A DNA stretch of 64,000 bases from positions 1,024,001 to 1,088,000 of the forward strand of contig CAWANH010000029.1 of assembly GCA_963783375.1 (NCBI GenBank). Reading direction: 5' to 3'. This document shows positions 27,908-63,313 of this stretch, one piece after another. Each line of letters opens with the position of its first letter. Position 1 is the stretch's first letter. Made by a program: the position numbers and the translations under genes. The notes under the pieces were generated by a model. It saw nothing but the letters and a program-made list of their open reading frames with translations. It had not been told where the DNA came from and ran no database searches. The stretch comes from Candidatus Eiseniibacteriota bacterium (GTDB lineage Bacteria; Eisenbacteria; RBG-16-71-46; JABDJR01).

Positions 27908-30568
<2,661 letters not shown>

Positions 30569-58146: not shown

Positions 58147-59960
58147 CTAGGGAAGGATCTCGCCGTCGAACATGTCGAGCGCCTTCTGGAGCATCGGCTC
58201 GTCCTTGAAGATCTGACCCATGGTGCGGGTGTCCTCGGCCGCGCGCTTGGCCCGGGGCTTCTTCCCCTCCGCCGCGGGAGGGGCGGGCTCGGCCCCCGCC
58301 GCTTCGGGGGAGGCGCCCTTGGCCGGGGCACGCCGGGCGGCTTCGACCTCCGACGGGGCGACTTCGGGAGCGGCGTTCCCGGCCGGAGCGGCGGCGCGCG
58401 GCGGGCCGGGGGCACCCCGTTTCGTCCCTGGTGCGGCGGATCCCTCCAGCCGCACCGCCGGCGCGGCGCAGCCCAGATCGGCCAGGATCTCCGCCAACAG
58501 CTCCCGGGTCGTCTCCTCGGCCAGGGTGTCGGCCAGCATGCTCCCGCCCCCGGTGGCCCGGAGGATCAGGGCCCCGTCCTCGGCGGTTCCCACCGCCTCG
58601 GCGTTGTGGCAGGTGGCCCAGATGCGCTTGTTCCGCTCCTTGAGTGCCTCCATCGCGCCGGCCCAGATCCCGACGGCATCGCCTGCAGCCTTCGCGGGGG
58701 CGGCGCGCCGACTCTCACCCCCGGACCGCGAGGGGGGGGTGCCCCGGCCCTTGGCCGGGGCGCGGGGCGCCGAGGCCTCGGAGGGGCGATCGGGAGCGGC
58801 CGGAGGGGTTTTCCCCCCCAGGCGCGCCTCCAGGTCCAGGAGCCGCGCGGCGAGATCGGCCAGGGGCACCCGCGACGCGGCCTGGGCCATCTCCGCCAGG
58901 GCGAGTTCCATGGTGAGGCGCGGGTTGGGGCTCCGCCGGAGCGCCACCGTGGTGTCGGCGGCGCGCTCCACCAGATCGGTCAGGGCTTCCCGGCCGAAGG
59001 CCGCGGCCTGGGCGGTGAGACGCGGGACCTCGGTCTCCGAAGCCTCGAGTATGGAGGCCAGGGCCGGGTCGATCCGGAGCATGAGGAGGTCGCGCAGATG
59101 GCCGGCCAGCCCTTCGGCCAGCTCCCCCAGATCCGCCCCGCTGGTGTAGATGGTGTCCAGGAGGCCGAGCGCGCCCGCGGCATCGCTCGCGGCCAGGCGG
59201 TCGGCCAGGGTGAGGTAGAAGTCGGCGCCCACCAGCCCCAGGATCCGCTCCACGCTTTCCCGTTCGATCGCCCCGTCGGCGGCGGAGATGATCTGATCCA
59301 TGAGGGAGAGCGCGTCCCGCACCCCCCCGCCGCCCGCCGGGCCACCAGGGACAGGGCGTCGGGGGATGCCTCGATCCCCTCCTGCTTCATGAGCGCGGCC
59401 AGGTGGCCGGCGATCTCCCGCGAGGGGATGCGGGCGAAGTCGAAGCGCTGGCAACGGGAGAGGATGGTGGCCGGAAGCTTGAAGGGTTCGGTGGTGGCCA
59501 GGACGAAGACCACGCTGGCCGGCGGCTCTTCCAGGGTCTTGAGCAGGGCGTTGAACGCCTCGTGGGTGAGCATGTGGACTTCGTCGATGATGTAGACCTT
59601 CGACCGTCCGCCCGAGGGCGCGTAGCGGGCATTCTCGCGCAGCTCGCGCACCTCGTTGATGCCGCGGTTCGAGGCCCCGTCGATCTCCAGCACGTCCATG
59701 CTCCGGCCGCCGGTGATCTCCCGGCAGGCGTCGCATTCATTGCAGGGAACCGCGGCCGGGCCCTTCTCGCAGTTCAGGGCCTTGGCCAGGATGCGGGCGG
59801 CGGTGGTCTTTCCCACTCCGCGAGGCCCGCAGAAGAGATAGGCGTGGGCCACCCGCCCCGCGGCGATGGCGTTTCCCAGGGTGCGGGTCACGTGCTCCTG
59901 GCCCACCACGTCCTCGAACACCTGGGGGCGGTACTTTCGCGCCAGGACGAGATAGGACAT
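58147..59960 (-). CDS. dnaX: DNA polymerase III subunit gamma/tau (one frameshift at a G7 run, 59322-59328)
   Basis: [42 protein letters not shown]; continues [10 protein letters not shown] in a shifted frame. Confidence 0.93.
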
Positions 59961-60018
59961 GGGTTCCCTCCGCGTTCGGGGGCGGCGGACGGGTCGGGCC
60001 GCCGCTCCGGAAGAAAAA

Positions 60019-60290
60019 GGGTCGTGCACCTGCTTTTCGACCAACACCGGGCGCCGACTACGAACGGCCAGCTCCGGCCAGGGACTCCGACGGCACACCG
60101 AGGGAATTGCTTACCGCTGCTACCTTCCGGTCCTGACGGGGTTCACAAGCCTCGATTGCGCCGGACCTGGCCCTCAACACCGCCATCTTCCGTAGTCCGC
60201 ACGCCAGATGCAGGCCTCGAGCAGGAATTCAGCCCCGCTATAGCGGATTGCGGGTACAGGGCACCGCTAACTCCCCGCCTAGCACGACCC
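60019..60290 (-). ncRNA. ffs: Signal recognition particle RNA, large (Alu-containing) bacterial type
   Basis: Conserved GTCAGGACCGGAAGGTAGCAGC core; 5' GGGTCGTGC pairs with 3' GCACGACCC; upstream of dnaX. Confidence 0.92.
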
Positions 60291-62469: not shown

Positions 62470-62622
62470 GGTGGACCCGGGTACACATTGTTCACAATCA
62501 GGCGCCGGCGTGCTTCCCCGGGGAAGCAATGTTCGTGATAACGCCCCGGCGTGCTTCCCCGGGGAAGCAATGTTCGCGATAACGCCCCGGCATGCTTCCC
62601 CGGGGGAACAATGTTCACAATA
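62470..62622. repeat. 41-bp tandem repeat with palindromic core, three copies plus one degenerate
   Basis: TGCTTCCCCGGGGAAGCA at 62511 and 62552, variant at 62593; (A/T)TGTTC..(A/G)AT motif recurs every 41 bp from 62487. Confidence 0.85.
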
Positions 62623-62692
62623 AAGCTGCGCTCACGAACCTGCTTGCCGGCGGAGCTGCGACCGGAGGCCCGAACCTCGCGTTGTTGATCGG

Positions 62693-63242
62693 TGGCGGAG
62701 AGGGAGGGAGAGTCGTGGCGCCCGCTACGCTCCGCCACGACATCCCCGGTCGCCGTGCTTCCTCAGGTTCCAGCGGATGACTACCTGAGTTGTCTTCATG
62801 TGGCGGAGAGGGAGGGAGAGTCGTGGCGCCCGCTACGCTCCGCCACGACATCCCCCGACACCGTGCGAACCGGAGGAGCAGCCGACAATCAACGTTGTCA
62901 TCACATGGCGGAGAGGGAGGGAGAGTCGTGGCGCCCGCTACGGCCACGACATCCCCGGTCGCCGTGCTTCCTCAGGTTCCAGCGGATGACTACCTGAGTT
63001 GTCTTCATGTGGCGGAGAGGGAGGGAGAGTCGTGGCGCCCGCTACGCTCCGCCACGACATCCCCGGTCGCCGTGCTTCCTCAGGTTCCAGCGGATGACTA
63101 CCTGAGTTGTCTTCATGTGGCGGAGAGGGAGGGAGAGTCGTGGCGCCCGCTACGCTCCGCCACGACATCCCCGGTCGCCGTGCTTCCTCAGGTTCCAGCG
63201 GATGACTACCTGAGTTGTCTTCATGTGGCGGAGAGGGAGGGA
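62693..63242 (-). repeat. tRNA-linked tandem array: five 104-108 bp units, each ending in the last 17 nt of tRNA-Ser
   Basis: TGGCGGAGAGGGAGGGA (+ strand) at 62693, 62801, 62906, 63010, 63118 and 63226 (the tRNA itself). Confidence 0.92.
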
Positions 63243-63313
63243 TTCGAACCCTCGGAACCCGGAGGTTCAACGGTTTTCGAGACCGCCCGATTCAACCACT
63301 CTCGCACCTCTCC
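63226..63313 (-). tRNA. tRNA-Ser (anticodon CGA)
   Basis: GGAGAGGTGCGAGAGTGG...GCGGT-CTCGAAA-ACCGT, long variable arm, GGTTCGAATCC...TCCGCCA; 88 nt. Confidence 0.96.

Follow-up and report, generated by a model that had tools for sequence, protein, structure and literature searches.

Tandem tRNA-linked repeats behind a bacterial tRNA-Ser(CGA) gene and their possible spread as folded single-stranded DNA

The array behind tRNA-Ser(CGA)

The window analysed here is a 64,000-nucleotide stretch of a contig from a Candidatus Eiseniibacteriota bacterium. Near its end, on the minus strand, a tRNA-Ser(CGA) gene is followed by five tandem units, with a gene for a FlgD-domain protein upstream and a gene for an ArnT-like glycosyltransferase downstream. 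The array starts at the base right after the CCA of the tRNA, lies on the same strand as the tRNA, and runs from 63225 to 62693 in units of 108, 108, 104, 105 and 108 bp, as a preliminary description of the locus, made from the sequence alone, had claimed. Its parts are as follows.

63226–63313, minus strand: tRNA-Ser(CGA), the host gene (ARAGORN; Rfam RF00005, 54 bits); its last 17 nt (63226–63242) are the repeated tail
63118–63225, minus strand: unit 1, type A, 108 bp (sequence comparison)
63187–63214, minus strand: linker hairpin of unit 1, 7-bp stem, without a U tract (fold; without a terminator on the minus strand)
63167–63172, minus strand: GGGGAT arm of unit 1, antisense to the first bases of the tail (fold and alignment of family cores)
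63137–63166, minus strand: inner hairpin of unit 1, 9-bp stem, capped by the mini-hairpin GCGTAGC at 63149–63155 (fold, alignment)
63118–63134, minus strand: tail of unit 1, a copy of the tRNA from T60 to CCA (sequence comparison)
63010–63117, minus strand: unit 2, type A, 108 bp, same sequence as unit 1
62906–63009, minus strand: unit 3, type A, 104 bp, its mini-hairpin motif broken by a 4-nt deletion
62801–62905, minus strand: unit 4, type B, 105 bp, with another linker and the arm and hairpin of type A
62693–62800, minus strand: unit 5, type A, 108 bp, same sequence as unit 1

The order within a unit is a 53-nt linker containing the 7-bp hairpin, the GGGGAT arm, the 9-bp stem with its GCGTAGC cap, two unpaired nucleotides and the tail, and the arm is predicted to pair with the start of the tail in the unit. 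The preliminary description had the linker roughly right at about 50 nt and the stem right at 9 bp, but it missed the arm and the two nucleotides that part the hairpin from the tail. It likewise gave the tail its correct extent of 17 nt to the CCA, but the copy starts not in the T-stem but with T60, which closes the T-loop. In all five units the tail is exactly the 17 terminal nucleotides of tRNA-Ser(CGA), which upholds the earlier claim; about 1.4e-7 such 17-mers would be expected by chance in a stretch of 550 nt, and the 12 exact copies in the genome of the window (G000) all lie in three tRNA genes and their arrays. Both irregular copies noticed earlier were also confirmed: the 4-nt deletion of the unit at 62906 sits in the hairpin loop of unit 3, and the diverged linker at 62801 belongs to unit 4, the hairpin of which is unchanged. 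The linker of unit 4 is closest to the units at the tRNA-Ser(GGA) locus, and its nearest unit at another locus is a GGA unit of the same genome (0.73).

Examination of the neighbour genes revealed no integrase or cas gene adjoining the array, in agreement with the preliminary description, and no terminator-like site was found on the array strand (minus). The Infernal/Rfam comparison that had been proposed returned no Rfam family for the unit. Folded as RNA, the whole unit behaves like its shuffles (z about −1).

Other features of the window were recorded in passing. At 62489–62623 lies a separate 41-bp repeat in 3.3 copies, centred on a CCCGGG palindrome (fold z −3.4), which belongs to a REP-like family dispersed through the genome (140 BLAST pieces, several arrays); CCCGGG-type palindromes similar to it come after several Ser arrays in relatives, and no Y1 transposase for it was found in the genome. 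A second ARAGORN tRNA-Ser(CGA) at 29798–29890, without CCA or a normal T-arm, looks spurious, and a dnaX-like gene at 58147–60098 is apparently split over two reading frames in the list of open reading frames.

The array is unlikely to be an assembly artefact, an explanation that we rejected on junction contigs in public runs and on homologous arrays in five other genomes. Runs X1 and X2 contain exact 138-nt contigs across the head-to-tail junction, and X5 a piece with one mismatch; the three runs come from one study and X1 and X2 contain a near-identical strain, so their support is not fully independent. A contig of this length (108 + 30) is compatible with a tandem array and a circle alike. 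In X1 and X2 the depth of the unit is about that of single-copy DNA, without excess, as judged from contigs, from which copy number is not derivable.

The layout is that of the tRNA-linked repeats (TLRs) of Escherichia coli, on which Egan and Landy in 1978 and Rudd in 1999 reportedly published earlier papers. According to excerpts of a later article (PMC8144298), TLRs have been known since 1978 without a known function, E. coli K-12 has 22 of them at ten loci with one to five at each, and their hallmark is that the 18–19 terminal bp are identical to the 3' terminus of the tRNA or rRNA before them. The window has five units directly downstream of the CCA, within the one to five per locus, and we counted its tail as equivalent, although at 17 nt it is one short of the E. 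coli 18–19. By layout the array is, as judged from these comparisons, a TLR array, though the Rfam model of one such repeat, RF00391 (RtT), had no match in the window or in 8/8 family genomes at E<=1. Because the array has the defining layout of known TLRs, the earlier proposal of an undescribed system is not supported.

Host genes and exchange of units

In G000, copies of a gene's own 3' end occur downstream of only five genes, the four genuine tRNA-Ser genes and tmRNA, among 57 ARAGORN calls of which about ten look spurious and one is a tRNA at a contig end. The other Ser arrays (three units at GGA, two at GCT, three and a short one at TGA) are built of units homologous to those of the window; the TGA units end, unlike the window's, in the tail of the TGA gene itself. 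The first tRNA-Ser(GGA) unit (L001, G000:C29:1090891-1091000) has a tail 2 nt shorter just upstream of the discriminator. Units stand behind 4/4 tRNA-Ser genes both in G003 (45 tRNA genes examined) and in G006 (49), where the sole other hit is a full-T-loop fragment together with a weak 70-nt piece that lacks the TLR design, behind the tRNA-Leu(TAA) gene of G003. This last locus (L302) is a 299-bp segment with a gene remnant inside, ends in a tRNA-Leu 3' half with a full T-loop, and is likely a decayed island. A search behind 5S rRNA in five genomes found no array-like tail copy, only one lone weak match 430 nt off in G000.

Across 206 genomes of the phylum, a tandem-tail pattern matched ten, namely six of the eight genomes of the window's family and four outside it. 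The four proved to be adjacent real tRNA-Ser genes and were dropped; the two family genomes without a match are 75% and 88% complete. A short-spacing tmRNA pattern matched 4/206, all in the window's family. By these exact patterns, which would miss other tails or spacings, arrays of this type were seen only in the window's family among the 206 genomes. Serine loci carry 0–6 units each, and some are empty. The comparison with the genome and relatives that the preliminary description had called for found arrays at other tRNA-Ser genes and at tmRNA, with a varying copy number.

Arrays with full tails follow tmRNA in G000, G001, G003, G004, G005 and G007, and arrays with truncated tails in G006. 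The tmRNA arrays (L066, at G000:C3:189100-189335, and L067-L072) comprise unit classes of 44–45, 80–84, 106, 124, 141 and 206 bp, some of them common to different genera; the 206-bp and 44–45-bp classes recur at the tmRNA of different genomes. Their units have long arms antisense to the tmRNA tail with one bulged base, and mini-hairpins on the antisense strand.

We also scanned GTDB genomes with a pattern that required the arm and 16 nt of the tail, which gave at least 120 matches, and examined the DNA of 80. After 22 of 75 candidate units had been dropped as adjacent real tRNA genes, there remained, among the matches listed, 39 loci with 53 non-tRNA units behind called tRNA genes in many phyla, and 41 of these 53 have a tail of 18–19 nt in common with the host. 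One locus, L135, carries the window's unit type and was left out of this wide set in the motif counts below as being of the same lineage. At L145, L132 and L167 the T-loop and T-stem of the host recur in the arm as a long, exact, inverted copy.

The bodies of the units resemble one another by genome rather than by locus. For 35 distinct unit bodies, which are related so that the counts are not independent events, the nearest neighbour lay at another locus of the same genome in 27 cases, at the orthologous locus in three and elsewhere in five; in the unit tree most grouping follows the genome, and the deep branches are weakly supported. Best-pair identity was 0.775 for loci of the same genome with the same tail (8 pairs), 0.665 for the same genome with different tails (13 pairs), 0.616 for orthologous loci (28 pairs) and 0.617 for the remaining 87 pairs. 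Arrays contain units of more than one kind, with linkers and hairpins reassorted, as in G003 GCT and window unit 4, and many arrays close with a partial copy. Every tail is that of its own host gene, also at loci that share a hairpin but differ in tail, and a metagenomic relative (L325) has the window-type hairpin with a TGA-specific tail; the tail is 17–19 nt long in 43 of 46 family Ser units (18–19 nt in 32 of the 46). Because units group by genome, arrays mix and the L325 hairpin has a TGA tail, unit bodies appear to move while tails stay host-specific, and, from such sequence likeness, units seem to be traded between serine tRNA and tmRNA genes within the family. In JGI metagenomes the exact window linker had no match; a looser window pattern found five loci, all directly behind tRNA-Ser genes, and therefore no cargo-bearing version was found.

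Folding of the units as RNA or DNA

We aligned 24 of the 30 distinct family cores, leaving out six near-duplicates. The structure described above pairs in 88.5% of the alignment cells, against 37–51% in slid controls, the GGGA:TCCC pairing is invariant in 24/24 cores, and the one-sided changes are of the G-U type. On covariation, a check suggested at the outset, 5/5 pairs of the inner stem show changes on both sides, and RNAalifold gives the same outer and inner stems; because the aligned sequences are related, we take the covariation as support, not as a probability, and changes that look compensatory can also arise by template switching in the absence of selection.

Complementarity of the arm to the tail in register was 32/32 only at the anchored GGGA and 3–12/32 over the first four acceptor positions; its maximum is on the T-stem side, and a second, weaker one is at the acceptor end. 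In the predicted folds the stems are broken and pairing extends into the discriminator/CCA region. The suggestion of CCA-ended tRNA-mimic small RNAs fails and was rejected because the arm pairs with the T-stem side and no 7-bp acceptor helix to position 72 with a free NCCA forms in the predicted folds.

The mini-hairpins bear on the question of which nucleic acid folds. In its strict form, GCGN(N)AGC, the motif is found on the sense strand of 14/32 family cores and on the antisense strand of none; in the wide-set cores, among the matches listed, the numbers are 25/42 and 2, and random genomic windows have it in 5.5%. When CCGN(N)AGG is added, the Ser units have the motif on the sense strand in 27/34 and on the antisense strand in 4, and the tmRNA units on the antisense strand in 14/17 and on the sense strand in 3, in all seven genomes. 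On the tmRNA sense strand the loops of the perfect stems are TTC, TCC or TTTC; C(TTCG)G, which would give the C(UUCG)G tetraloop in RNA, is not among them. Mini-hairpins of the C(GNA)G type are described in parts of PMC13037366 as having a far higher stability in DNA than in RNA, as poor SSB binders, and as occurring at the phage G4 and ssiA origins and N4 promoters. Since the mini-hairpins are on the sense strand at tRNA-Ser and on the antisense strand at tmRNA, their strand placement points to folding as DNA.

Against this stands the sense-strand preference of the Ser cores, which is stronger with RNA parameters (fold z −1.74 sense, −0.79 antisense) than with DNA parameters (−1.18 and −0.67), and the one-sided G-U changes fit RNA equally. 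A census of G-T versus A-C mismatches gave few cases only. The sense strand of the arrays is G-rich and likely the leading strand; because such placement is usual for tRNA genes, the replication strand does not discriminate. An enrichment of GNRA tetraloops came mostly from spurious 2-bp stems and was discarded, and a motif common to exactly the five host genes was set aside as circular because it was derived from those five genes.

Possible mechanisms and comparison with known systems

Because units appear to be traded between genes and have hairpin loops of a DNA-stable type, they likely act as folded single-stranded DNA, and we put at an even chance the full reading that this is a TLR array whose units are selfish DNA cassettes spread by recombination in the tail. 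In such a scheme a strand would fold while exposed at a replication fork or in an R-loop, arm and tail would form a duplex attachment site by analogy with integron attC or a CTX-type site, and a putative trans-acting enzyme would insert units at the 3' end of a tRNA-Ser gene or of tmRNA. Once in place, the units would be multiplied and homogenised by slippage and gene conversion, which would also reshuffle linkers and hairpins, and RNA, if made, would be a read-through by-product. The evidence we count for it is the layout shared with E. coli TLRs, the host restriction, the variable copy number, the likeness of units within genomes, the mixed arrays and the recurrence of unit classes at tmRNA, the two-sided changes in the inner stem, the strand of the mini-hairpins, and a tail that starts in the region used by T-stem-type integrases. 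Counted against it are the absence of any enzyme tracking the arrays or Ser-type unit in viral contigs in the searches below and the lack of excess unit depth in contigs; moreover, a tail that is always the host's own despite a common hairpin is not predicted by simple circle integration. A mini-element at the tRNA 3' end, one of the two readings first offered, is supported in part, by the shared units, mixed arrays, fixed-length tails and DNA-type hairpins, but neither its enzyme nor a circle was found.

As to a partner, G000 encodes XerC-like and XerD-like proteins, an integron integrase (IntI) and two copies of a degenerate-looking recombinase, and XerC/XerD-like genes are the only candidates common to all five genomes examined. 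The two copies (G000:C28:1350637-1351071 and C5:4964-5398) belong to a tyrosine-recombinase-like gene of 292 aa with apparently degenerate catalytic motifs in its C-terminal part. RAYT/Y1 transposase (0/5 genomes), reverse transcriptase (2/5; absent from G000, G001 and G003), IS110 (3/5; absent from G000 and G004) and IntI were rejected as partners, none of them tracking the arrays across genomes: IntI exceeds the cut-off in 49/121 class genomes, most of them without arrays, is not above it in the array-bearing G002 and G004, and in G000 lies on another contig than the array. No cognate recombinase tracking the arrays was found among the enzyme families searched. Two Ser-specific patterns had 0 matches in viral contigs. 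The E. coli serX array was found among phages in one unannotated 2-kb record, and the two plasmid matches examined for it are chromosomal infA-clpA fragments.

The strongest alternative, which we nevertheless consider rather improbable, is that the array is a co-transcribed trailer, cut at the tail copies by the normal 3'-processing nucleases into structured small RNAs or processing aids like RrA/B/F and RtT. The units lie on the tRNA strand right after the CCA without a terminator-like site, the Ser units show a sense-strand fold preference and G-U changes, and three E. coli TLRs behind 5S (rrA, rrB and rrF) are, in the excerpts of PMC8144298, transcribed and processed and bind Hfq and CsrA, rrB being processed 3 nt past its repeat; as 5S rRNA has no T-loop, these TLRs also speak against the cassette reading. 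A trailer is at odds with a copy number of 0 to 6 and empty loci, with orthologous loci no more alike than unrelated ones, with stable loops on the untranscribed strand of tmRNA units, and with the absent acceptor stem and unremarkable whole-unit RNA fold. Unlikely to a further degree is a passive repeat, in which a hairpin trapped between tails promotes slippage and gene conversion moves units, with no enzyme and no function. It would account for homogenised arrays, partial last copies, linker/hairpin chimeras, the highest exchange between loci with identical tails, and the failure to find a partner enzyme, but leaves unexplained why the arm, the GNA loop and the 18–19-nt tail recur in many phyla and why both Ser and tmRNA arrays appear in one family. 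Least probable is that the units are scars left by integrase islands that have lost all but their ends, or additional att cores that divert integration from the tRNA gene: the tail matches the att-core region, the 2-nt loss in the tRNA-Ser(GGA) unit resembles 'damage' described in part of PMC4383910, and at L185 an island-like end abuts a TLR hairpin, but islands at five other loci appear by inspection to have used the tRNA rather than the unit as their point of entry, and the exact 17-mer in G000 is confined to tRNA genes and arrays.

Wider than the preferred reading of the units as DNA cassettes, and doubtful though conceivable, is the extension to all TLRs as widespread gene-less cassettes integrated as single-stranded DNA at tRNA and tmRNA 3' ends by a putative host or roaming recombinase. 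If this were true, tRNA ends would be integron-like platforms, and there would be a new class of minimal mobile element with a novel single-stranded DNA recombination activity, acting at the commonest integration hotspots of bacterial chromosomes. TLRs are treated only as RNAs in the literature we found, which was largely open-access and in which Islander was the only DNA-level or mobile account. The value of the present data is comparative: opposite-strand mini-hairpins and unit traffic suggest action as DNA, and this evidence on strand and exchange makes the old TLR question testable in E. coli K-12 with its 22 TLRs.

Among known mobile systems, integron attC cassettes and Xer-exploiting elements use folded single-stranded DNA as att sites. 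The units share with attC an imperfect long hairpin, an unpaired gap, bulged bases, a variable terminal structure and mixed stacks; they differ in that inspection revealed no RYYYAAC/GTTRRRY boxes and that a tRNA end takes the place of attI or dif as target, and with IntI elsewhere and not tracking the arrays we do not class the array as an integron. With REP/RAYT and IS200/IS605 they share short non-coding hairpins likely handled as single-stranded DNA, but they stand only behind five genes and are not dispersed, and the Y1 transposase expected in a REP/RAYT genome was found in 0/5.

Islands of the Islander type, made by tyrosine integrases at T-stem/junction sites, likewise leave, downstream of an intact gene, a displaced 3' fragment that keeps the gene's orientation, with tandem stacking and an occasional damaged fragment, as set out in part of PMC4383910; the same part places the site of T-stem-type integrases at the 3' side of the T-loop, the region where our tail starts. 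The units have such a displaced fragment, but are about 0.1 kb long (104–108 bp in the window) without integrase or cargo and with neighbours that are not integrases, whereas genomic islands carry a tyrosine integrase in 2–200 kb and the Islander filter is 2 kb. At L128, L134, L138, L161 and L189, TLR units stand behind displaced tRNA fragments with a full T-loop, most of them preceded by short direct repeats like integrase arm sites. Because the fragment keeps a full T-loop upstream of the TLR, the islands appear, by inspection, to have entered the tRNA, pushing the TLR off it. The island-like end at L185, like that of L138, runs straight into a TLR arm and hairpin, not into a T-loop, and is a possible link between TLRs and integrase att sites.

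The closest relatives are the E. coli TLRs themselves. We extracted those of tyrT/tyrV, serX and lys, which have an antisense arm, GAGCGAAGCG-type hairpins, an 18–19-nt tail and a partial last copy. The family units differ from them: the inner hairpin is single, the tail has 17 nt, the arm is short and the linker lacks a terminator; the tyrT/tyrV repeats are 178 bp with rttR (RF00391), the family units 102–114 bp. Family hosts are tRNA-Ser and tmRNA only, with none at 5S rRNA in five genomes, whereas E. coli TLRs also follow 5S, and tmRNA is not among the E. coli hosts named in the available part of PMC8144298. What this work adds is the restriction to tRNA-Ser and tmRNA, the exchange between loci and the strand-reversed mini-hairpins. 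The two have in common tandem non-coding units right behind a stable-RNA gene, one to five per locus, each closed by the 3' end of its own host; an arm that is antisense to the first bases of the tail; hairpins of the GAGCGNAGCG type; and a partial final copy. The inner design of the tyr, ser and lys TLRs, antisense arm and GCGNAGC hairpin, which we observed here and which is not a published criterion, is present in the window array. Because the extracted TLRs have the same arm, hairpin type, tail and partial copy, we regard the window array as a TLR array, and the likeness to tyrT/rtT noted in the preliminary description proves closer than it allowed, the two being the same kind of element.
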